From: a virus
Lineage: Duplodnaviria; Heunggongvirae; Uroviricota; Caudoviricetes
Virus record (IMG/VR): IMGVR_UViG_2663763232_000002
Location: 1-9,060 of that record
DNA: 9,060 nt
Strand: one strand, 5' to 3'
Shown: in pieces, positions 1-9,060 of the stretch
Layout: each line of letters begins with the position of its first letter
How positions within the stretch are numbered: the stretch's first letter is position 1
Translations under genes and position numbers: made by a program
The notes under the pieces: generated by a model
The model's database searches: none
The model's input: the letters and a program-made list of their open reading frames with translations, nothing else
Told to the model about the DNA's origin: nothing

Positions 1-168
1 TCAGTTGTTACGGGAAGGAATCAGGGTGGCCAGATGTACAGTGGCACGTCTCATGGCGGCTCTTACCCTGCTGGTGCTGTTGCCAGCCCTCATTTCGATG
101 CTGCTCACAGTAGCCTGAACGGTCCGTAGTCGTACCGGGACAACCTCTCTTGCGACATGCGCGAGGGA

Positions 169-402
169 TTAACGCTGGCATGGTTCAATCCTCACGGAAC
201 CGTAGAGCGTATGCCGCTTCACTTCATCGTTCTCTGCCGTCATATAACCACGCTCATCAGGAACGGCTGCGATTACTTCGCCCTTCTCATCGTCAGCAGT
301 GAAGACATGCTTAACTTCAACACCATTGAGATAAACGCTATACCGCTCTTTGCTGAGGTTTATTTTTCTTCCAGGATCATCATCTAAAACGGTTAGTCTC
401 AT
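169..402 (-). CDS. Small hypothetical phage protein (77 aa), function unknown
   Basis: ATG at 402-400 preceded by an AGGGGA Shine-Dalgarno ('AGGGGATAAGA ATG' on the minus strand). Same orientation as the Rha gene upstream. No family recognised from the sequence. Confidence 0.5.
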   Translation of the reverse strand: MRLTVLDDDPGRKINLSKERYSVYLNGVEVKHVFTADDEKGEVIAAVPDERGYMTAENDEVKRHTLYGSVRIEPCQR

Positions 403-490
403 TCTTATCCCCTACTTGGTATATTGATTATCTTATTCGCTTGAAGGGATAACCATTATCAAGCCCACCCGTAGATGGGCTTTGGAATGG

Positions 491-1045
491 TCACTTTGGC
501 AGTCCTGGGATCGATATTTGCGCCTGCTGCTCAAGCCTTTCGATTCTTGCTATGAGTTGCGGTTTTTTGATCCTGCCCCAGCGGTTCAGCAAGCGTCCTG
601 ACATACTGGCAACATCCTTTTCCTTCATGAACTCCAGCATTAACTCGTTGTGCTCTCTTTGGTATGAGTGAGCCATCTCCATCAGCCTGTCACGCATCCA
701 ATTAAATGCTTTGATAAACGCCTCTTTGATGGCGGCAGCTTTTTTGCCGGTAAACGACATGATGATGTACATCGCGCCGTCTTTGGAAATTTCATATTCA
801 ACATACTGATTACCCTTGTGTTCATAGGTAACCCGCGAAAAGTTGCTGGTTAGAAATTCATCCGAACAGTCTAGCTTTTCGATTTTCTGAATGATGTGGT
901 GATGCTGCTTGTCGAAGTAAGCTGCTACCTTGCGGGAGGTTGTGATCACGCGATTACCAGAAACAACCACCATGTCCCGGAAATCGAGATTAGCCAATTG
1001 ATGATTCATAGCGTCTTTACCTTTTAGAAAGTGAGCCTGTCTCAC
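491..1045 (-). CDS. Rha-family phage regulatory protein (antirepressor-like)
   Basis: The N-terminal segment 'VVVSGNRVITTSRKVAAYFDKQHHHIIQKIEKL...YIIMSFTGKKAAAIKEAFIKAF' matches the Phage_pRha signature as I remember it. The ORF-track start at 1045 is a GTG; an in-frame ATG at 1009-1007 with an upstream AAAGG is an alternative start. Confidence 0.7.
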   Translation of the reverse strand: MRQAHFLKGKDAMNHQLANLDFRDMVVVSGNRVITTSRKVAAYFDKQHHHIIQKIEKLDCSDEFLTSNFSRVTYEHKGNQYVEYEISKDGAMYIIMSFTGKKAAAIKEAFIKAFNWMRDRLMEMAHSYQREHNELMLEFMKEKDVASMSGRLLNRWGRIKKPQLIARIERLEQQAQISIPGLPK

Positions 1046-1157
1046 AGAAAAGCCGCCCCGAGATGGTCGCCACCATATACGGCATTTCTCAGGCTCGCTT
1101 ACTGAAAGGCTCGGGTGATGTAATATGCGCGTGAGATGCGCTGTGAAATTCAGATGT

Positions 1158-1181
1158 AAAAAAAGCCCCGCATCGCGAGGC
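1158..1181 (-). terminator. Candidate rho-independent terminator downstream of Rz/Rz1
   Basis: Minus strand reads 5'-GCCTCGC-GAT-GCGGGGC-TTTTTTT-3': a 7-bp GC-rich stem (one G.U pair), 3-nt loop, then a 7-T tract, lying 33 nt past the Rz stop. Confidence 0.45.
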
Positions 1182-1213
1182 TCATTAAATGGACTTTGTG
1201 ATTTGCAAAAGAA

Positions 1214-1681
1214 TTATTTCAGGCATTGCGTCCTGATGTATTCCTGCAGGTAGTTAACCTGCGCGGTTATCTTGTCGATTCCACTTCGGAGACGGTAATA
1301 ATTGAGTTCAGCATCTGCTGTAAGTCTTGGGCTTTCTCCATCGCCCATGCTGCTGGCTCCGGTCGTTGACTTTGCACAGGTGGCGGCGACTTGCAGCCGC
1401 TTACGGCCAGCAATGACATCGCTATGCAGACGCTCAATGGTTTCTTTCGCATCAGCCAGTTCTCCGGTGTATTTGGCATCCAGTGCAGCGACATCACGCT
1501 GGCGGGTCTGCATGTCTTTAATGGTGGCGGTCGCCAGGAGGAGTTTCTCAGTGGCCTTATCGCGCTGGTCTCTGTAAGTGATGGCGTTGTCGCGGTAGTG
1601 GTTCACGAAGAAAGCCAGTGCGCCGATTAACGCCAGCACCAGCAACTGCAGCCAGTAACGCTTAACCAGTGCGCTAATCAT
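1214..1681 (-). CDS. Rz: Spanin, inner-membrane subunit (i-spanin) Rz
   Basis: The 155-aa product has an N-terminal hydrophobic anchor followed by '[11 protein letters not shown]...[19 protein letters not shown]', closely matching lambda Rz. Its ATG overlaps the endolysin stop (ATGA at 1678-1681). Confidence 0.9.
1267..1452 (-). CDS. Rz1: Spanin, outer-membrane lipoprotein subunit (o-spanin) Rz1, embedded in Rz in the +1 frame
   Basis: Internal ATG at 1452 gives a 61-aa product '[33 protein letters not shown]...' with a signal peptide, a lipobox (LAVSG|C) and a proline-rich mature region, as in lambda Rz1. It lies wholly inside Rz. The ORF-track entry 1267..1497 is the same frame with a spurious upstream extension. 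Confidence 0.8.
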
Positions 1682-2127
1682 GACAGGAACAGAGCTCGCT
1701 CTGCCTCCCGCCGACGTGTCAGCCCATTCAGCACCTTCCCACCAGCTTTATTCCAGCGCAGGAACTCATCGGCTGCACCAGCGTAATCTCCGGCGTTGAG
1801 TTTTCGCAGGAGAGTCGATGTCGACAATGACCGCGCACCGAGGTTATACGTGAACGACACCAGGGCATCGAACTGGCCTTGTGTCAGCTTCACCCTGACA
1901 ACTTTCAGCACGTCATTCTCATAACCAACAAGCCCTGTTTTCAGAAGCCTGTCAGCGGTTTGCTGGTCGATAGTCATACCGCGCTTTACTGGCTTTCCGT
2001 CAACCGGATGGGTCCAGCCATAGCCGATGGTCCACGGCGCATCTCCCGTTCCGGGGTCGGGGTAAGCAGTCAGCCGACAACCTTCAAATTTTTTTATCAG
2101 AGCAATTCCGTCAGGACTGGTTTGCAT
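1678..2127 (-). CDS. Endolysin, T4/P22-type lysozyme (GH24 muramidase)
   Basis: Catalytic-region pattern '[22 protein letters not shown]' (Glu, then Asp 8 residues later, then Thr 5 further) and the C-terminal 'FTYNLGA....[19 protein letters not shown]....GL..RR..E' resemble phage 21/P22 lysozymes. There is no N-terminal SAR/TM segment, so it depends on the holin. The ORF-track start at 2154 is TTG; I call the ATG at 2127-2125 with an upstream GGGAG. Confidence 0.85.
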
Positions 2128-2434
2128 CGTCAACTCCCGCCTTTTTTGCTGCAAGTTTTTTAATCAAATTGCCGATCGAATCGGTGCCGATGTATCCAAT
2201 AAAGACGCTGGCTATGTAGGCGAGGTTGCTGCTCAGGCCGATAAAGTCCAGAAGGTCACGAACGAACCAGGCAATCATCGCGCACATCAGCGCATCAATT
2301 AGCGTTTTTGTTACCGCGCCGCCGTTATAGCGACCACGCAGATACGCCATGATAAAAGCCAGCATTGCACCAATACCCTGCTCCTTGGCGGCAAGTAGCG
2401 CAGCAATGAAATCTTGTTTGTATGGCATTTTCAT
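2111..2434 (-). CDS. S: Class I holin, lambda S family, with dual-start motif (holin/antiholin)
   Basis: The 107-aa product '[39 protein letters not shown]...' is near-identical in pattern to lambda S, including the Met1-Lys2-Met3 dual start. A GGAGG Shine-Dalgarno lies 8 nt upstream. The ORF-track extension to 2512 starts at a TTG and is not supported. Confidence 0.9.
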
Positions 2435-2458
2435 AGGCCTCACCTCCGATTTTTCGGA
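2435..2458 (-). promoter_or_regulatory. S translation-initiation region: stem-loop overlapping the Shine-Dalgarno (sdi-like)
   Basis: Minus strand reads 5'-TCCGA-AAAA-TCGGA-GGTGAGGCCT-ATG: a 5-bp stem whose 3' arm overlaps the GGAGG Shine-Dalgarno, directly before the Met-Lys-Met dual start. This is analogous to the lambda S sdi structure that sets the S107:S105 ratio. Confidence 0.4.
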
Positions 2459-2540
2459 TGGCGCTGTGTGTGTATGAAAAGGATCAGGCTTCACTGGCTG
2501 GATTTTCAACAAAGCACGTAGTGATTGATTCCCGTGAGCC

Positions 2541-2567
2541 TGAAATAAAAAACCAGCTCAAGGCTGG
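2541..2567 (-). terminator. Candidate intrinsic terminator between the tRNA pair and S
   Basis: Minus strand reads 5'-CCAGC-CTTGA-GCTGG-TTTTTTATTT-3': a 5-bp stem (4 G:C), 5-nt loop and 6-T tract. The stem is short, so strength is uncertain. Confidence 0.4.
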
Positions 2568-2623
2568 AATGTTAGGGTGTGGCAATGTCAGCTCTGCGGC
2601 TGAAGATACCCTGGCTGGGTTTT

Positions 2624-2699
2624 TGGTGCCGGTTAACGGATTTGAACCGCTACCTATTCACTTACAAGGCGACCGCTCTACCATTGGAGCTAAACCAGC
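2624..2699 (-). tRNA. tRNA-Thr (anticodon UGU), phage-encoded
   Basis: Hand-folded 76-nt cloverleaf on the minus strand: acceptor GCTGGTT/AACCGGC (one G.U), U8, D-arm GCTC-CAATGGTA-GAGC with G18G19, anticodon loop CU-UGU-AA, T-arm AGCGG-TTCAAAT-CCGTT, discriminator A, encoded CCA. Deviations: C where A14 is expected and a G:A at 27:43. Confidence 0.55.
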
Positions 2700-2704
2700 A
2701 TGTT

Positions 2705-2779
2705 TGGCGGGACAGCGTGGACTCGAACCACGATAAGAAGGTTAACAGCCTTCCGTAATGACCTTTATACGACTGACCC
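2705..2779 (-). tRNA. tRNA-Asn (anticodon GUU), phage-encoded
   Basis: Hand-folded 75-nt cloverleaf on the minus strand: anticodon arm GAAGG-CUGUUAA-CCTTC (same loop as E. coli tRNA-Asn), T-arm CGTGG-TTCGAGT-CCACG, 4-nt variable loop, discriminator G, encoded CCA. The acceptor stem GGGTCAG/CTGTCCC has a U4:U69 mismatch and the D-stem has a 13:22 mismatch. It sits 5 nt upstream of the tRNA-Thr. Confidence 0.6.
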
Positions 2780-2783
2780 AAAT

Positions 2784-2825
2784 AAAAAAAGCCACCGTTG
2801 CAACTTAAGAGTCACTAACGGCAGC
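2784..2825 (-). terminator. Candidate tR'-like leader terminator between Q and the tRNAs
   Basis: Minus strand reads 5'-GCTGCCGTT-(17-nt loop AGTGACTCTTAAGTTGC)-AACGGTGGC-TTTTTTTATTT: a 9-bp stem (7 Watson-Crick plus 2 G.U) followed by a 7-T tract. The T tract ends 4 nt before the tRNA-Asn 5' end. Confidence 0.45.
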
Positions 2826-2829
2826 TTAT

Positions 2830-2866
2830 GCGAATAGTGTTGCTCATTTGCTCAATGATGTCAACA
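2830..2866 (-). promoter_or_regulatory. Candidate late promoter pR' / Q-utilisation region
   Basis: A perfect -35 hexamer TTGACA on the minus strand at 2864-2859, seven nt after the Q stop. No convincing -10 at 16-19 bp spacing (AACACT, ACACTA and CACTAT are the options). The position, directly downstream of Q and upstream of a leader terminator, matches lambdoid pR'. Confidence 0.3.
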
Positions 2867-2870
2867 CGTT

Positions 2871-3359
2871 CTATGCTACATGTTTAATTTTCTCTACACG
2901 TTTCCGGTTTTTAAACGCACTATCCAGAACTGGGTAAATCATAAACAACGAAGCATTGAGGATTTCGTCAACTTCCCGGCGACAGGTTGCGAGCGATGGT
3001 TTTTGAATACGCCCGCCGCCCCGGCATAACATCTTGCGAGGTCTTGCGACACGATGATAGTAAGATGCAATGGCATGCTTGGAAGATCCATGAGCGTAGT
3101 AGCTGAGGAGGATGCCAAAGGCTTTCTTGTCAATGCACATGACGGAATCGACGACCTGAGAAATCAACATTCCATCATCATCATTACACATTGGCCTTGT
3201 CATAACTCTTCCCGGCTCTACGCTCTCCATGAACTTCGCTATTACGCTGCTCATGCGCTTTTCCAGACGACCTGAATAAACCCATGCGCCCCACAGTTCA
3301 AGCCAGCCATTCAGCCAATCGTGCTGTTCTTTGGTGAGGTTTAGTTCTCTTATGCTCAT
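2871..3359 (-). CDS. Q: Late-gene antiterminator Q (Q family of E. coli lambdoid prophages, not lambda-Q type by sequence)
   Basis: The 162-aa product 'WLELWGAWVYSGRLEKR...MTRPMCNDDDGML...SYYAHGSS...RRE' matches, from memory, the Q antiterminators of E. coli lambdoid prophages. Position is canonical, between ninH and the lysis cassette. The ATG overlaps the ninH stop (ATGA, 3356-3359). Confidence 0.75.
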   Translation of the reverse strand: MSIRELNLTKEQHDWLNGWLELWGAWVYSGRLEKRMSSVIAKFMESVEPGRVMTRPMCNDDDGMLISQVVDSVMCIDKKAFGILLSYYAHGSSKHAIASYYHRVARPRKMLCRGGGRIQKPSLATCRREVDEILNASLFMIYPVLDSAFKNRKRVEKIKHVA

Positions 3360-3544
3360 CGTCTTCCCCTCTTGCCCTGTTTGACCATCAGGACGCCGTT
3401 AACTATTACGTGACGCTCGCCTTTGCTGTCTCGGTTGTACTTGAGCACTGTTCCTCTTGCGCAGGAAAGCATCCTTGCCACTTCGGTCTGATTGCCTCGT
3501 GTCTGGATAAGAAGCTCTGGTATCGTTTGAATTGTGGCGTTCAT
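3356..3544 (-). CDS. ninH: NinH (small HTH DNA-binding protein)
   Basis: '..TIPELLIQTRGNQTEVARMLSCARGTVLKY..D.KGE.HVIVNGVLMV' aligns with lambda NinH ('KTIPDMLVEAYGNQTEVARRLKCSRGTVRKY...HAIVNDVLMV'). ATGA overlap with rusA at 3541-3544. Confidence 0.85.
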   Translation of the reverse strand: MNATIQTIPELLIQTRGNQTEVARMLSCARGTVLKYNRDSKGERHVIVNGVLMVKQGKRGRR

Positions 3545-3903
3545 ACGTTCTCCAGTTCGGTGATTTTTATTCCAAGCCGTCCGCCTGGTACTTTCACGCC
3601 ACGAATTACGCGAATGTCATCGAATTGCTCGTCGTCTTCCGCAAATCCTGCGTGGATAAGGGAATCGAGTAAACCCTTCAGGATGTTATCGAGGTCGCGG
3701 CGGCGGGAGTCTGGAACGTCTGCGATGACTTTGATGCGGAGTCTTGATTTGGTGAAAATGTCTAACTTGAGTTGGCGGATGATTTGCTGAACGTCTTTTC
3801 GGTATTTCTGGCCTTTATCGCTGATGTAGTATTGGCTTCCCCGTCTTCGCCAGTAGGTGTTCACCGACGGCTGGTAAGGAAGCACAAACTGATATTCGTT
3901 CAT
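3541..3903 (-). CDS. rusA: Holliday-junction resolvase RusA
   Basis: The 120-aa product 'YQFVLPYQPSVNTYWRRRG...IADVPDSRRRDLDNILKGLLDSLIHAGF..DD.Q..D.RV......GGRL.I.ITE' shows the RusA family motifs (catalytic Asp cluster RRRDLDN). ATGA overlap with the upstream gene. Confidence 0.9.
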   Translation of the reverse strand: MNEYQFVLPYQPSVNTYWRRRGSQYYISDKGQKYRKDVQQIIRQLKLDIFTKSRLRIKVIADVPDSRRRDLDNILKGLLDSLIHAGFAEDDEQFDDIRVIRGVKVPGGRLGIKITELENV

Positions 3904-4190
3904 GGCTTAATCTTCCCCTCCTTCAGCAGGATCGCCTGCGTCCTGATCACGCCTTCGAGGTGATAAAGTCTGGCGTCTTTGTTGTCGAGGTTATGGGTGC
4001 GTCGGTCGATCTCCGCGTGGCAGTCACTACAAGCCCATGTGCCGATCAGGTCGGCAGGCTTCATTCCCGTTCCGCAAATTCCAGCCATCCGGTAATGCGC
4101 CAGAACTGTAGTTTCAGGATTACCATTGCATATGCCGTAAATACGTACCTGGCATTCTCTGCCGCGCGCTTCTTTGCGTAGGTTAGCCAT
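3900..4190 (-). CDS. ybcO: YbcO-like DUF1364 protein (putative Zn-binding nuclease)
   Basis: 'MANLRKEARGRECQVRIYGICNGNPETTVLAHYRMAGICGTG.KP.DL....ACSDCHAEIDRRTH' closely matches DLP12 YbcO as I recall it, and sits directly upstream of rusA as in DLP12. Confidence 0.8.
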   Translation of the reverse strand: MANLRKEARGRECQVRIYGICNGNPETTVLAHYRMAGICGTGMKPADLIGTWACSDCHAEIDRRTHNLDNKDARLYHLEGVIRTQAILLKEGKIKP

Positions 4191-4459
4191 TATGGTTCAC
4201 TCCAGTAATTCTCAATTGCAGCAGCCATTCTCTGCATCCACTCAGCCAGCTTTAACGCGGCTTCTCTTTCAGAACCACATTTAGGGAAATCCTTCATTTC
4301 CATGCTGGCCTTATATGTTCTGAATGCCAGGTCTCCGGTAATAACCAGCTCCTGATCAAGCACCGAGCGTTTATTCCGGTGTTGAACGTAATAGACAGAT
4401 TCAGTCCGCATTTCTTCTCTGTCTTTTTTGAAGGAAATAAGCTCAGAGAAATCATTCAT
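4190..4459 (-). CDS. Hypothetical nin-region protein (89 aa)
   Basis: Clean ATG at 4459-4457; an 8-nt start/stop overlap with ninF upstream and a 1-nt overlap with the ybcO-like gene downstream show it is embedded in the translationally coupled operon. No recognisable family. It occupies the slot that ninG/rap holds in lambda. Confidence 0.6.
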   Translation of the reverse strand: MNDFSELISFKKDREEMRTESVYYVQHRNKRSVLDQELVITGDLAFRTYKASMEMKDFPKCGSEREAALKLAEWMQRMAAAIENYWSEP

Positions 4460-4622
4460 CGTCTTCTTCCTCGTACATTGAGCTATTCGGATCGCTCATC
4501 AGTTCTGCGCAGCAATCGGAGCACACGTGAACTTCCAGCACATACAGCTTCTGACCGCAGTTAGCGCACGTTAAAGCCCGCTCGACGCTTTCTTGTTCGT
4601 AACTTCGATTTGGGTCAATCAC
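4452..4622 (-). CDS. ninF: NinF (56 aa), absent from the ORF track because it is under 60 aa
   Basis: Manual translation of the minus strand gives '(V/M)[55 protein letters not shown]', matching lambda NinF ('...[45 protein letters not shown].'). GTG start at 4622-4620 with a GAGGAAAA Shine-Dalgarno 8 nt upstream; GTGA overlap with the ninE stop. Confidence 0.7.
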
Positions 4623-4801
4623 CTTGTTTTCCTCGCACGTTCTCTAAGCCACCGGATATCCCACAGGTGAGCCGTGTAGTTGAAGGTTTTTACGTCAGAT
4701 TCTTTTGGGATTGGCTTGCGTTTATTTCTGGAGCGTTTCGTTGGAAGGTATTTGCAGTTTTCGCAGATGATGTCGGTGATACTTCGTCGCTGTCGTCTCA
4801 T
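4619..4801 (-). CDS. ninE: NinE (60 aa)
   Basis: Internal ATG at 4801-4799 with an AGGAGG Shine-Dalgarno 5 nt upstream gives '[60 protein letters not shown]', matching lambda-type NinE from memory. The ATG overlaps the methyltransferase stop (ATGA, 4798-4801). The ORF-track 90-aa version is a spurious 5' extension. Confidence 0.75.
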
Positions 4802-5343
4802 GCCGCCCTCCTGACGCCCTGCCCGATCGCCATCAATGCCACTTTGGATACGGTAGTAAACATCCGTCGAGGACTGATGAACGGTCGCCAAATCAGCAGC
4901 ATGGAGCCTTTGCTGTTTCCCTTTTTCTCCAGCCCTGTCGATGGTTCGATAAAATTAATCCGTCCATCAGTGATAATACGAACTTCGTCAACACTCTCCA
5001 GAGCCTTGCTGAACCATCCGACTGACATATCCTCTGGCACAAGCATCACTACCGTCTGTCGCTGTTGTATGCACTGCTCAGCGGCTTTTTCCACCCACGG
5101 CCTGATATTGCTGTACGGTGGGTTATTCCAGATTGCACCGTGGCTTATCCACTCAGAATTGAGCGCGTTGTCAGCCTCAGTTAGCCAGTGAGCGCACAGA
5201 GCATTTTTGTCGCTCGCTGCCGAATCCAGCCAGAATCCAAACTCAATATCCAGTGCATCAAAAAGCCAGAGCGGCGTTTGCCAGCAGTCCTTGTCGTGTG
5301 CTGGCGTATTTGATTTGATAGTCATGCAGCCCGATCTCCCCAT
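4798..5343 (-). CDS. Phage DNA N6-adenine methyltransferase (Dam-like, orphan)
   Basis: '[28 protein letters not shown].......L...W....[17 protein letters not shown].......Q.VVMLVP' carries the NPPY catalytic motif IV and matches the phage Dam (PF05869-type) pattern. No cognate restriction gene is adjacent. An alternative ATG at 5325 overlaps the HNH stop as ATGA and may be the true start. Confidence 0.85.
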
Positions 5344-5924
5344 CTCGCTTTCATTTTTTCATTTGCAAATCGCCAGAATCTTCCTTTGTGATATGAGCTT
5401 TCGCCATTACAGCAACGACTAATTGACGAACTATCAAATCCTTCTCTGACAGCATCCATAGCTGCTTCATAATAAACCTCCTCCCCAGTTTTCATGTCAG
5501 TAGAAATAACAGCTTTACTGGCAGGATGGTCACCACTAAATTTACCTAGCGATATAGGTATTCTTCCATTTTGTTTATATCCGTGTTTTGAGTTTTCAGA
5601 ATGTGATACCCATTCAAGGTTATCAGCCCTATTGTCATCTCTTCGCCCATTTTTGTGATTAACTACCAAGCCATCACAGAACCCTGTACAGAATGCTTTC
5701 GCAACTATCCTGTGGGCGCTGTATTTCTTACCGTATACCTTTATTTGAAGATATCCTGTCGACTTGCACTTGAATGGTTTTACACTAGTGCCATTAATTA
5801 TTTTCTTATATGGCCTCTGTCTGGTTGATGTTACTGTAACTTCCCTCGTAATAGACCTAAAATTTCCTTTATTGCTAACCTGATAAAATGGAATCCCTTC
5901 GATATCTACCCAAACCTCAATCAT
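5322..5924 (-). CDS. Free-standing HNH homing endonuclease (NUMOD4 + HNH_3-type)
   Basis: N-terminal NUMOD4-like 'EVWVDIEGIPFYQVSNKGNFRSI'; HNH core 'H-KNG-RRD-DN-RAD-NL-EWVSHSE-N-SK-H'; C-terminal 'F.S...AA...G.....IS.CC.G...S..G..WRF', typical of phage HNH endonuclease DNA-binding tails. GGAGG Shine-Dalgarno before the ATG at 5924. The gene body is markedly AT-rich. Confidence 0.85.
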   Translation of the reverse strand: MIEVWVDIEGIPFYQVSNKGNFRSITREVTVTSTRQRPYKKIINGTSVKPFKCKSTGYLQIKVYGKKYSAHRIVAKAFCTGFCDGLVVNHKNGRRDDNRADNLEWVSHSENSKHGYKQNGRIPISLGKFSGDHPASKAVISTDMKTGEEVYYEAAMDAVREGFDSSSISRCCNGESSYHKGRFWRFANEKMKARWGDRAA

Positions 5925-6333
5925 AATTCCTCCATTCGCTAAGATGAATTGAGTTCATGGCACAATATGCTTCTATGTAGTCCATTATTTCGGATATTTT
6001 TTTTACAGATAGAGTCGCCGTACTCTCTCTGATGTTTATTAGCTCACCTTCTAACCCTGATATAATCTCAGGGTGCTGGTTGGTTGCAATCTGCCAACCA
6101 GAAACGAATAACCCCTTCCAAAACTCAATATTTCTTGCTTTTCCATGATATGTAGCCTTCTTACTTATTTCAGATAGCATCGCGTGAAGGCGTGCATTTT
6201 GCCGAATGCTGCGGTTGCGTTCCTGAATGGTTACTACGATTGGTTTGGTTGGGTCTGGAAGGATTTGCTGTACTGCGTGAATAGCGTTTTGCTGATGTGC
6301 TGGAGATCGAATTTCAAAGGTTAGTTTTTTCAT
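5917..6333 (-). CDS. ninB: NinB (Orf-family recombination mediator), mosaic allele
   Basis: The first ~41 residues, 'MKKLTFEIRSPAHQQNAIHAVQQILPDPTKPIVVTIQERNRS', match lambda NinB as I recall it; the remainder is homologous but divergent. GAGGGAAG Shine-Dalgarno before the ATG at 6333. Confidence 0.85.
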   Translation of the reverse strand: MKKLTFEIRSPAHQQNAIHAVQQILPDPTKPIVVTIQERNRSIRQNARLHAMLSEISKKATYHGKARNIEFWKGLFVSGWQIATNQHPEIISGLEGELINIRESTATLSVKKISEIMDYIEAYCAMNSIHLSEWRNYD

Positions 6334-6526
6334 GACTTCCCTCTCTAACAGATTTCAGGTTATTCCACTCCGTTACCGCACTGCGATAATTCGCGGCCGC
6401 CACAGCAGCGTGGTTAGCGCAGTAGATTTCGCACCCGCTCTCCATGTCAAATATTGTCGGTGATTTTCCGCATTTACATTTTTTGGCACGCGGTGCGTCT
6501 GAACACATTCCGTTAACGGTGTCCAT
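6314..6526 (-). CDS. Small Cys-rich hypothetical protein (70 aa, zinc-ribbon-like)
   Basis: Strong Shine-Dalgarno (GAGGGGGA) before the ATG at 6526. Cysteines are arranged C-x8-CxC...C-x3-C. It is the first gene after the terminator, in the position of ren in lambda. No family recognised. Confidence 0.5.
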   Translation of the reverse strand: MDTVNGMCSDAPRAKKCKCGKSPTIFDMESGCEIYCANHAAVAAANYRSAVTEWNNLKSVREGSHEKTNL

Positions 6527-6550
6527 CAGGATCCCCCTCGTTCTTAATCC

Positions 6551-6581
6551 AATAAAAAAGGGCTACTGTGTAAATAGCCCC
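6551..6581 (-). terminator. Intrinsic terminator downstream of the primase-helicase (tR2-like position)
   Basis: Minus strand reads 5'-GGGCTA-TTTACACAG-TAGCCC-TTTTTTATT-3': a 6-bp stem (7 if the flanking G:C is counted), 9-nt loop and 6-T tract, between the replication gene stop (6612) and the first nin-region gene. Confidence 0.6.
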
Positions 6582-6611
6582 TGTTATTAGCTCAGTGATG
6601 TAGATGGTCAT

Positions 6612-8492
6612 TTAATACTCCGTCACGTTTTCCTGTCGCCACGCCTCGTCATATTCCGATTTCGGCATATTGGCGATGTAGCTATAAGGCGATCCTGATT
6701 CAAGTTGCAGGAACTGGTGCGATTGCTCGTCAAGGAACAAAGGGACGCCACCTTCCCAACCTTCGCCGTTACGTTGCTTTTCAAGCATCAAAACAGATGC
6801 CGGAGATGCCAGTAGCTGTTCGTCCTTCTCTGACATCTTTTCACCACTCTGAACTCTCTGTAACGCTCTCTCGCGAGCCTTGTTACGCCAGATGATGAAA
6901 AGGTTGTCTGTCAGGTCTGTTATCGCTCCAGAGCCTTTTACGTCCATTTTCCCGGTTGGTTTTTCTTCGCTGTCACCTTTTCGCGAGTGAGTAACGAGAA
7001 TGACGTGGGAGTTTGTTTTGTTTTTGAAATCGCAAATCGAGTCAACAAACGCCTTCTGCCCGTTATAGTCATCGTCGCCTATGCCACATTTCATTAGGCT
7101 GTCGATGATGAATAACTGGATCCCGTATCGGCGGCGAGCGTAGTCGAATATTTCGATCAGCCTGTCGGCTTTCGCCGTTCCGGTCAGACCAAACACCCAA
7201 AGTCTTTCGTCATAAAATTTAAATGCAGAGTCAATTTCCAGCACTGGCGGCATCTTGCAGCACGTCGCCTGACGGGTAAGGCGCTTAAGGAGAATACCAG
7301 GCTTCAGCTCAAGTGACGCGATGCACGTCTTCACACCCTGACGCATTGCCTCAAGTGCCATATGCCCGACAACCTCCGTTTTTCCGTGACCGTTCACACC
7401 ATTGACCAGCGTCAACTCGGCCTCACGGAACTGGAATTTATCTGCCAGAGATTCCCACGGTGGATTAAACAGATACTGCTGCTTGCCGTAGAAAGCGTTG
7501 ATAGTGTCCTGGTAAAACTCTCGCGCGCTGTAGAGTTCTTCAGGATCGAAGTAGGATGCCGTGCCGATGTACTGCCAGATTTCATCCTCGGTAACACCGT
7601 TCATCAGGCATTCGTTGATGTCTTTGTACGGCAGAGTAACAAGACGGCAACGATGTTCACCGAGTCGGCTTGCGATTTCCCTTGCGGCTTCACGACCAAC
7701 ATCATCAACGTCCATCGAGATGAATATTTCCTCAAACCTGTCGAGGTTGTGATACTCAAACTCAATCCACTGTTGCTTAGCGCCTTTCCCGCCACCAAAC
7801 GGCACGGATAACGCCGAGATGCCGTATTGCGCATAGCTCATACAATCAATTTCGCCTTCGCAAAGTACAACCGCCCTCACGCCAGCGTCCAGAGCCTGCC
7901 ATCCGAACAGACAAGGTTCGCAATCACCTTCTGCCATAATGACTTTCTTCCCGTCCGGGCGCTCAGTGCTGATTCGCTTGACCTGCAACAACTCACCATC
8001 GCGTTTGTACGGAATCACCAGAGCATCCAGTTCTCGCTCTCCATTCCACACCTTGCCGCTGACAACCTCGTAGCGCTTTACGACTTCTGGCGATATGCCA
8101 CGCGATTGCAGGTACTCAAGATGGGATTCTGTTCTGGTAACGTAGCGGGCGATTTTCTTGCGATCAGGTCTGGAGAATTTCTTCTCACGTTTGGCATCGA
8201 AATGGTGATCGTCATCCTTGATACCGAGAAATGCTTTCGCTTCCTGCATAGCCTGATGCAGGTTAATTCCTCGACATGCCATCCACAAATCAAGCATGTC
8301 ACCGCCGTCCCCCTCAGCGAAATCAGCCCATTTTTTCTTGCCGCTAAGGTTGACCTTAAGGCTGTTTCCCTTGTCACCGTTGACGTTACCGGCAACCCAC
8401 TCATGCCCCTCTTTCTTGCCGTTTGGCAACAGGTGCGGAGCCACCCTGTCAACCTGCGCCCAAAGCAGGTCGCTAAGTTCACTTGGCGTCAT
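6612..8492 (-). CDS. Bifunctional DNA primase-helicase, T7 gp4-like (degenerate zinc-binding-like domain, TOPRIM primase, DnaB-family helicase)
   Basis: TOPRIM motifs 'VVLCEGEIDCMS' and 'ISMDVDDVGREAA', and 'LPYKDINECLMNG' (T7 gp4 has 'LPCKDANECHLNG'). Helicase Walker A 'NGVNGHGKT', Walker B 'LFIIDSL', and 'VKGSGAITDLTDNLFIIWRN' (T7 has '[20 protein letters not shown]'). GAGGGA Shine-Dalgarno before the ATG at 8492. Confidence 0.9.
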   Translation of the reverse strand: MTPSELSDLLWAQVDRVAPHLLPNGKKEGHEWVAGNVNGDKGNSLKVNLSGKKKWADFAEGDGGDMLDLWMACRGINLHQAMQEAKAFLGIKDDDHHFDAKREKKFSRPDRKKIARYVTRTESHLEYLQSRGISPEVVKRYEVVSGKVWNGERELDALVIPYKRDGELLQVKRISTERPDGKKVIMAEGDCEPCLFGWQALDAGVRAVVLCEGEIDCMSYAQYGISALSVPFGGGKGAKQQWIEFEYHNLDRFEEIFISMDVDDVGREAAREIASRLGEHRCRLVTLPYKDINECLMNGVTEDEIWQYIGTASYFDPEELYSAREFYQDTINAFYGKQQYLFNPPWESLADKFQFREAELTLVNGVNGHGKTEVVGHMALEAMRQGVKTCIASLELKPGILLKRLTRQATCCKMPPVLEIDSAFKFYDERLWVFGLTGTAKADRLIEIFDYARRRYGIQLFIIDSLMKCGIGDDDYNGQKAFVDSICDFKNKTNSHVILVTHSRKGDSEEKPTGKMDVKGSGAITDLTDNLFIIWRNKARERALQRVQSGEKMSEKDEQLLASPASVLMLEKQRNGEGWEGGVPLFLDEQSHQFLQLESGSPYSYIANMPKSEYDEAWRQENVTEY

Positions 8493-8542
8493 GATTCCCT
8501 CAGATTGAGATTTTTAAACCAGAAATCGACAAACGAAATACT

Positions 8543-8558
8543 TAACCAGCCGTGGTTA
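8543..8558. promoter_or_regulatory. Inverted repeat TAACCA-GCCG-TGGTTA in the intergenic region upstream of the primase-helicase
   Basis: Six-bp arms that are exact reverse complements, separated by 4 bp, about 50 nt upstream of the primase-helicase start. Flanked by three AACCAG direct repeats (8517, 8544, 8560). Candidate operator or hairpin; no functional evidence. Confidence 0.25.
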
Positions 8559-8599
8559 TAACCAGCGACCAGTAGCGATTTGATTTTTGATTTCATGGT

Positions 8600-8974
8600 T
8601 CACCTGTCGAAAAACACGTAGCCAGTTTTCGATACGGTGATTGCGGATGATGGTTTGGATTGTGGTTGAATAGTTTCTGGCTTCTCGTCGTTCCAGCGTT
8701 GACCGTTCAGGTAGCTCGATGGTAACAACCTGTCGAATCCGAACTGCTTACCATTCCTGCATGCGATGTCTTCTGCCAGCATCGTGGCAAACTCGCTTGC
8801 CGTACCCCTGGTAGTTTTACGCCATTCCCTGAACTGTGTTCTGAATGCCGAAGCTGCGTTTTTCTTCCCGGCTTTCCGCATGCCTGCACACCAGAATATT
8901 TCCTCGAATGCCTTGTCGGTTTCTTCGTGACGGTCAGGAGTTTTTTCACACTCTGTTCGGACATGTTCGAACAT
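8600..8974 (-). CDS. Hypothetical replication-module protein (initiator-like?), probably 5'-truncated by the window edge
   Basis: The 124-aa ORF from ATG 8974 has no Shine-Dalgarno, and the same frame stays open upstream to the window end at 9060, so the real start is likely outside the window. Located immediately upstream of the primase-helicase. No family recognised. Confidence 0.5.
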   Translation of the reverse strand: MFEHVRTECEKTPDRHEETDKAFEEIFWCAGMRKAGKKNAASAFRTQFREWRKTTRGTASEFATMLAEDIACRNGKQFGFDRLLPSSYLNGQRWNDEKPETIQPQSKPSSAITVSKTGYVFFDR

Positions 8975-9021
8975 AATGTTTTTAGGTTCATTGACTGGTT
9001 CAAAAGAGTGATAGGTTCTGG

Positions 9022-9060
9022 GGGCAGCTCCTGCCCCACCCCCTAGGGCAGCTCCTGCCC
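9022..9060. repeat. Tandem palindromic iteron-like repeats (candidate replication origin or operator array), truncated by the window end
   Basis: The 15-bp unit GGGCAGCTCCTGCCC (arms GGGCAG/CTGCCC, 3-bp centre) occurs at 9022-9036 and 9046-9060 with a 24-bp period. The window ends inside the array. Confidence 0.5.

Follow-up and report, generated by a model that had tools for sequence, protein, structure and literature searches.

A gp4-type primase-helicase with a ligand-free DnaG-type zinc-binding domain in a lambdoid replication module

The window analysed here, a stretch of 9,060 nucleotides forming positions 1 to 9,060 of the Caudoviricetes record IMGVR_UViG_2663763232_000002, comes from a lambdoid prophage, of which it covers the early-right and lysis region, with the genes on the minus strand. 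Its replication module encodes a protein of 626 amino acids (aa) which belongs to the T7 gp4/Twinkle type of replicative primase-helicases and is self-contained. Residues 1-90 of this protein descend from a DnaG-type CHC2 zinc ribbon and have lost all four metal ligands. The cysteine-less N-terminus is the fixed norm of a large primase family found in phages and on plasmids, and not a peculiarity of one phage. The identity of the protein, its domain architecture, and the homology and ligand loss of its zinc-binding domain (ZBD), taken jointly, are very nearly certain. The overall explanation, in which a gp4/Twinkle-type enzyme occupies the slot of lambda P and a metal-free descendant of the ZBD takes part in priming, is probable.

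Domains of the primase-helicase

Pfam places Toprim_2 at residues 209-296 (3e-12) and AAA_25/DnaB_C at residues 355-594, and PHROG 239 'DNA primase/helicase' matches the protein from end to end (1.6e-171). T7 gp4 (E 2.6e-23) and Twinkle (E 6e-14) are the best sequence matches among solved structures. A family profile of 56 full-length members that share 31-60% identity with the query (alignment A2) aligns with the T7 gp4 sequence from residue 50 to residue 507 (E 3e-59), the helicase domain corresponding to T7 residues 260-507. The full-length AlphaFold model (predicted local distance difference test, pLDDT, 92.9; predicted template modelling score, pTM, 0.79) contains a linker helix at residues 323-335. 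It superposes on T7 gp4 (5ikn_J) with a template modelling (TM) score of 0.75, normalised to the target, and aligns with human Twinkle over ~610 columns, DnaB being also among the fold matches. The original prediction of a gp4-like primase-helicase is thus borne out by the Pfam and PHROG matches, by the similarity to T7 gp4 and Twinkle and by the fold. As for lambda P, no family of this protein is found among the Pfam, PHROG and NCBIfam matches, and the fold is gp4-like.

The T7 primase residues R84, K122, E157, D207, D209 and D237 are essential. They align with R131, K172, E212, D261, D263 and D291 of the protein described here, each of which is kept in 54-55 of the 56 divergent members; with E214 and D216, these make up the catalytic residues of the primase domain. 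The motifs of the superfamily 4 (SF4) helicase comprise Walker A (G365..G370-K371-T372), Walker B (D464), H502, K505 and R536, and in the same 56 members K371, D464, H502, K505 and R536 are conserved about as strongly as the primase catalytic residues. Toprim catalytic acids, SF4 helicase motifs and the union of both domains with a linker helix in one polypeptide, all features of the gp4/Twinkle type, are therefore present, while the ligand residues of the N-terminal zinc-binding Cys4 ribbon are missing. The catalytic loss that marks the primase-dead Twinkle-like class does not appear to have occurred, the presumed catalytic residues being both kept and conserved. We also considered a T7-like acidic/aromatic C-terminal tail for docking of the polymerase; the query ends in ...ENVTEY, but the tails are unconserved across the family.

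The N-terminal domain is laid out as two helices, five short strands forming a small sheet, and two further helices. It has the ZBD fold and its closest structural matches are DnaG ZBDs. At the sequence level, PF01807 (CHC2) aligns residues 26-92 with profile positions 26-92 of 98, in register (E 0.098), a weak match that emerges only when residues 1-117 are scanned alone; a Pfam scan of residues 1-202 at E <= 10 gave no match. Among 40 diverse members scanned, PF01807 is matched by 7 (E <= 1; best E 0.0067) and TIGR01391 dnaG by 12 (best E 0.0013). The sole other family matched by more than one of them, GH97_C (4/40, best E 0.1), looks like noise. With residues 1-202, phmmer against the PDB retrieved only Aquifex DnaG (2au3), in which QIFKCFGCGVGGD is aligned with KKWADFAEGDGGD of the query. 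The 40-sequence N-terminal profile found nothing at E <= 10 in an hmmsearch of all PDB sequences, and the PDB contains no family member. Sequence profiles by themselves stop short of the ZBDs of known structure, and the link was made by fold comparison and by hhalign, which scored the family profile against 74 gammaproteobacterial DnaG N-termini at P = 8.7e-5 over 69 columns.

All alignments give the same mapping of the metal ligands: C40, H43, C61 and C64 of Escherichia coli DnaG correspond to G35, N38, D57 and E60 (the E. coli sequence used for the first mapping is 100% identical to that of the Escherichia locus L006). All four columns of the Cys-His-Cys-Cys set of PF01807 are hence substituted, and residues 1-72 are free of cysteine, as had been noticed for the first ~70 residues together with the replacement of the CxxC ligands (CFGC to DFAE). 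That the N-terminus is a ZBD homologue, also proposed at the outset, is upheld by four independent lines: the CHC2 and DnaG profile matches, the match to 2au3, the hhalign comparison and the DnaG-type fold. On the other hand, the alignment of its 'GNSL' to the T7 zinc ribbon found no support: the family profile starts at T7 residue 50 and has no alignment to residues 1-49, which form the T7 ZBD. The N-terminal domain is of the DnaG type, ~90 aa long with flanking helices, and not the short Cys4 ribbon of T7.

The ligand-free module in phages and plasmids

Protein mEp043_055 of coliphage mEp043, annotated 'hypothetical protein, similar to ES18 gp61', is 99.8% identical to the 626-aa protein. 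The gene is carried at >=95% nucleotide identity by 296 of 5,426 complete E. coli genomes (~5%), where PGAP names the product 'toprim domain-containing protein'. Homologues with 69-95% identity occur throughout the Enterobacterales, under names that include 'bifunctional DNA primase/helicase' and 'Twinkle protein'.

An exhaustive phmmer search with the N-terminal module (residues 1-117) against 1.84 billion cluster representatives returned 2,813 clusters at E <= 1e-3, of which 637 pass the stricter limit of E <= 1e-10. The ligand positions were surveyed in 143 of the top 150 clusters, which share less than 50% identity with one another. Gly stands at position 35 in 143/144 and Asp at position 57 in 144/144, while position 38 varies (N/S/D/A/H/G), as does position 60 (T/S/E/A/G/D), with no enrichment in Cys or His. 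The domain core lacks any Cys in 52 members, and the few cysteines of the others lie at the variable hydrophobic core positions 33, 34, 48 and 56. These scattered cysteines were considered as an alternative metal site and rejected, given the variability of the positions and the occurrence of three Cys in just 6 of 144 sequences.

Residues L21, P23, G35, G39, G42, S44, D57 and G64 are invariant in the family, and W32, W55, F58, D65, D68, L69 and W70 are at least 90% conserved. The motif G-x-x-G-D-x-[LI]-D-[LF], common to functional DnaG ZBDs, is retained. Because Asp57 and Gly35 are invariant, this signature argues for a re-engineered fold, stabilised anew under selection, and not for recent decay. 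The original prediction had named, as an outcome that would count against it, that cysteine-less variants be the common and well-characterised form. Common they are, according to the survey of 143 representatives; well characterised they are not.

For the module alone, there were 115 phage records and 433 plasmid records. The phages include ES18, epsilon34, g341c, Sf101 and the Shiga toxin (Stx) 2 phages phi24B and Min27, as well as phages of Pseudomonas, Vibrio and Ralstonia and the Wolbachia WO phages. The plasmids are mostly conjugative and belong to Rhizobiales and Rhodobacterales. Two distant relatives, both ligand-free, differ in architecture. One, a 346-aa protein of a Rhizobium plasmid, consists of the module, DUF7146 and Toprim_3 and lacks a helicase; the other, from Wolbachia WO, has 731 aa and combines the module with Toprim and AAA_25. 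On the Rhizobium leguminosarum plasmid NZ_CP016288 (L002 1-5304), the primase-only relative sits between genes for a strawberry-notch-like NTPase and a DUF2493 protein. This is a conjugative MOBP/MPF_T plasmid, and the context is recurrent for the module in alphaproteobacteria. Some members, among P0165, P0150, P0248 and P0263, have a LAGLIDADG intein within the helicase domain or an insertion of ~300 aa between the ZBD-like module and Toprim. In P0168 and P0198 the module is paired with DUF6371/DUF5906 or D5_N regions in place of Toprim.

There is no named model for the module in Pfam or NCBIfam. In an NCBIfam scan all 40 members match only NF005477 PRK07078 'hypothetical protein' and a segment of a TraI model; a protein search with the N-terminal profile returned just 59 proteins, mostly fragments. 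The PRK07078 match concerns the N-terminus of an uncharacterised 759-aa model. The other segment lies at ~1590-1650, near the C-terminus, of TIGR02760 (TraI, conjugative relaxase/helicase), and all 40 modules match it (best E 5e-10). Some relaxases may thus carry the same ligand-free ZBD-like module.

Replication module and neighbouring genes

From high to low coordinates, the window contains the 3′ half of an O-like initiator gene, a 35-codon open reading frame (ORF), the 626-aa ORF, a small Cys-rich ORF and NinB. There follow an HNH/NUMOD4 endonuclease, a Dam methylase, nin-region genes, YbcO and RusA and the Q antiterminator, then two tRNA genes, a holin, lysozyme and Rz, and a Rha-family gene. 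The features of the replication module are listed in Table 1.

Table 1. Features of the primase-helicase and of its surroundings in the window
Feature	Residues	Position	Strand	Remarks
Primase-helicase coding sequence	1-626	6612..8492	-	626 aa and stop; single ORF; orthologue of mEp043_055 / ES18 gp61
Ligand-free homologue of the DnaG-type ZBD	1-90	8223..8492	-	Former ligand positions G35, N38, D57, E60
Lys/Arg/Pro-rich linker	91-110	8163..8222	-	Predicted flexible: pLDDT ~67, no secondary structure
RNA-polymerase (primase) domain	111-310	7563..8162	-	N-terminal subdomain and Toprim fold; Toprim_2, T7 alignment, conservation
SF4 (DnaB/gp4-type) RecA-like helicase domain	355-600	6693..7430	-	AAA_25/DnaB_C, T7 alignment, conservation, fold matches
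Lambda-type O initiator, C-terminal half		8600..9060	-	153 aa; cut by the window end; directly upstream of the primase-helicase
Two perfect 15-bp palindromic repeats GGGCAGCTCCTGCCC		9022..9060		Candidate iterons of the origin; within the O gene, 24 bp apart, at the edge of the window
35-codon ORF MKSKIKSLLVAGYNHGWLSISFVDFWFKNLNLRES		8489..8596	-	Between O and primase-helicase; TGA stop overlaps the primase-helicase ATG (ATGA)
Cys-rich 70-aa ORF (CxC...CxxxC)		6314-6526	-	Between primase-helicase and ninB; no Pfam match

The linker that follows the N-terminal domain varies in sequence and length across the family. Upstream of the gene, the O fragment is 87% identical to mEp043 O over 145 aa (BLASTP), the last ~125 aa being essentially identical, and the complete mEp043 O protein matches Pfam Phage_rep_O at 1e-37. 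The middle of the mEp043 O gene holds three 19-bp iterons TGTCACCAAAACGGTGACA (L001 6407-6472), spaced 23-24 bp; the candidate iterons of the window and the sequence upstream of them differ from those of mEp043. With an O C-terminus identical in mEp043 but different iterons, the origin is the site of a mosaic joint of the classic lambdoid kind, and the O C-terminal domain is co-inherited with the primase-helicase gene. The original prediction saw this gene standing 'instead of lambda-type O/P genes', which is correct for the slot of P, the helicase loader, but not for O, since the initiator is still directly upstream. A module joining a distant O to an ES18-type primase-helicase has already been described in P22-like phages (PMC10307801). 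Replication modules of Stx phages are diverse, and how the non-lambdoid ones work has been stated to be entirely unknown (PMC8951638).

In phi24B (HM208303) and Min27 (NC_010237) the primase-helicase gene is labelled 'P' or 'putative replication protein P'. This label reflects only the position of the gene, the product having no similarity to lambda P. The overlap between the stop of the 35-codon ORF and the start of the primase-helicase gene suggests that the two are possibly translationally coupled. Small genes are annotated at the equivalent spot in ES18 (gp60), epsilon34 (gp51) and g341c, and none in mEp043.

On the other side of the primase-helicase gene, the Cys-rich ORF was considered as a detached zinc finger acting in trans, and rejected. 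It is 96-97% identical to HK97 gp60-region proteins, a nin-region gene type, and is unrelated to the primase because it is found in classic O/P phages (HK97, HK446) and is absent from mEp043. Further along, a gene for a NUMOD4 and HNH_3 homing endonuclease resembling I-HmuI (5322-5924, minus strand) lies between ninB and dam, overlaps its neighbours at both ends and sits in a patch of low GC content (0.37 vs ~0.49). In mEp043, ninB is followed directly by dam, and the endonuclease gene of the window looks like a mobile insertion. The two tRNA genes, Thr-TGT (2624-2699) and Asn-GTT (2705-2779), both on the minus strand, separate the Q antiterminator from the lysis cassette, at the site where Stx phages have tRNAs and toxin genes.

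Proposed role, alternatives and known systems

According to the mechanism we propose, the O-type initiator would bind iterons within its own gene, and its C-terminal domain would recruit the phage's own ring helicase, encoded in the P slot of the lambdoid module, rather than a P-DnaB complex. The SF4 helicase domain would unwind DNA and the Toprim RNA-polymerase domain would make lagging-strand primers, while the N-terminal domain, on its flexible basic tether, would handle template and primer as the ZBD does in DnaG and gp4. Its zinc-less fold would be stabilised by the family-invariant Gly35, Gly39, Gly42, Ser44 and Asp57 and the nearly invariant Trp32 and Trp55.

In lambda, P is bound by the C-terminal domain of O, and this parallel suggests that O recruits the primase-helicase directly; from the O-P analogy and the co-inheritance of the two genes, we regard O-mediated loading as reasonably likely. 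We lean, with a little less assurance, towards an active primase in which the metal-free domain has a priming role. Activity is suggested by the conservation of the T7 catalytic equivalents in 54-55 of 56 members. The function of the module would be tied to priming because it accompanies Toprim domains even without a gp4-type helicase, as in the Rhizobium plasmid protein and the Wolbachia WO protein. A role in priming rather than in docking to O is indicated by the plasmid and Wolbachia module proteins, which are without an O-type initiator, the plasmid one being also without a helicase. Between zinc-free template recognition and an altered primase, the two options left by the original prediction, conservation of the catalytic residues favours the former.

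Several points weigh against this picture. Replacement of the zinc ligands of T7 primase abolishes template-directed priming, and activity without zinc is not guaranteed. Both the primase and the helicase activity of the family are predicted, the contact between O and the helicase is drawn by analogy, and the idea that Asp57, Gly35, Trp32 and Trp55 stand in for the structural zinc comes from their conservation only. Concerning the homology itself, the PF01807 score is below threshold (12.9 bits vs a gathering cut-off of 24.9), the hhalign probability for the DnaG match is only 60%, and the assignment draws largely on the predicted structure.

The main rival is a vestigial primase of the Twinkle kind, in which the N-terminal and Toprim domains would only bind single-stranded DNA and load the helicase and host DnaG would prime. 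We consider this unlikely: the Toprim metal-binding acids and the equivalents of T7 R84 and K122, kept in 54-55 of 56 members, are hard to explain without catalysis, and the module also occurs in Toprim-only plasmid proteins, which have no helicase to load. Slightly less probable still is a repurposed adaptor, the ZBD-derived domain contacting another protein, for instance the O C-terminus or a subunit of the host replisome, without recognizing template, in a primase that is perhaps active. That the C-terminal domain of O is inherited along with the primase-helicase gene, its iteron-binding half being swapped, would fit such a partner, as would the pairing of the module with non-Toprim partners (D5_N, DUF5906) in a few members, and loss of the metal site could go with a changed role. 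Yet the same module with its invariant residues is present in alphaproteobacterial plasmid primases, in Wolbachia WO and in Pseudomonas and Vibrio phages, with unrelated or no O-type initiators, so that a partner specific to lambdoid O cannot explain its conservation; moreover, the motif of functional DnaG ZBDs is retained.

A structural metal held by other ligands (Asp57, Glu60, Asn38 and the nearby His30 or Glu31) is very improbable. In its favour, Asp57 never varies and Glu31 hardly does, and zinc and other cations can be bound by Asp, Glu and His. However, one former ligand position is an invariant glycine without side chain, the residues at positions 38 and 60 change freely, His30 occurs in just 39/144, and no set of three or four ligands is conserved. 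The least probable of all, and hardly credible, is that the N-terminal region is unrelated to primase ZBDs and resembles them by chance, for which the absence of an above-threshold Pfam match and the empty search of the PDB with the family profile would speak.

Both the family and its position in lambdoid genomes were already known and catalogued. A literature search, with partial coverage of subscription papers, found no earlier account of zinc-free ZBDs among the Toprim primases of phages or bacteria, nor any report that a very large clade of such primases on bacterial mobile elements combines a ligand-free DnaG-type ZBD with an apparently intact catalytic centre. For the broader proposal the balance is even: Toprim primases of mobile elements (lambdoid, Stx, Pseudomonas, Vibrio and Wolbachia phages, alphaproteobacterial conjugative plasmids) may prime in a template-directed manner with a metal-free ZBD, an invariant Gly/Asp/Trp network replacing zinc.

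If this is true, the assumption that zinc is indispensable to DnaG-type primases would be overturned, and replication of these elements would be independent of host DnaB, DnaC and DnaG, of zinc availability and of thiol oxidation. To our knowledge, the ZBD counts as indispensable to template recognition and primer hand-off in every DnaG-type primase studied (DnaG, T7 gp4, T4 gp61, plant Twinkle), and animal Twinkle, the only zinc-less case that is well known, is inactive as a primase. The family, which is easily cloned, is a natural experiment on the role of zinc, in structure only or in recognition too, and also a tractable model for the Twinkle N-terminal domain. That Stx phages bring their own primase-helicase is relevant to any understanding of their replication, and hence of the amplification of the toxin genes, independently of host factors.

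Like T7 gene 4 protein (PDB 1q57, 5ikn, 6n7i), the protein described here unites Toprim domain, linker and SF4 helicase in one polypeptide, with catalytic motifs that align. The ZBD of T7 gp4 is a short Cys4 ribbon of ~50 aa, in contrast to the ~90-aa DnaG-type domain without metal ligands found here. Furthermore, unlike its T7 counterpart, the protein sits in a temperate lambdoid phage beside an O initiator, with no phage DNA polymerase, and its C-terminal tail is unconserved. Metazoan Twinkle (PDB 7t8b, 8e2l) has no primase activity, whereas in the family described here 55 of 56 members have retained the Toprim catalytic residues. In human and animal Twinkle, loss of primase activity goes with a ZBD-like domain devoid of cysteines (PMC7231222), while plant Twinkle has kept its zinc finger, which is used and needed for template recognition (PMC10557236). 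Because the plant enzyme still has a functional zinc finger, the losses of zinc ligands in animal Twinkle and in the phage family appear to be independent.

Compared with the bacterial DnaG ZBD (PF01807; PDB 1d0q, 2au3), the Cys-His-Cys-Cys set has become Gly, variable, Asp, variable, and where the partner in DnaG is a DnaB-binding domain, it is here a gp4-type helicase. ES18 gp61, mEp043_055, epsilon34 gp52 and the 'P' of phi24B and Min27 are the same protein, with N-terminal modules 96-100% identical, under inconsistent database names ('hypothetical protein', 'toprim domain-containing protein', 'DNA primase' and, wrongly, 'replication protein P'). With lambda O/P and P22 gene 18/gene 12 the module shares an O-type initiator with intragenic iterons, followed by a gene that supplies the helicase, and a mosaic joint at the origin. 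However, in lambda the P protein brings in DnaB of the host, and in P22 the DnaB-like helicase gp12 works with the DnaG primase of the host, while here a single protein would serve as both helicase and primase.

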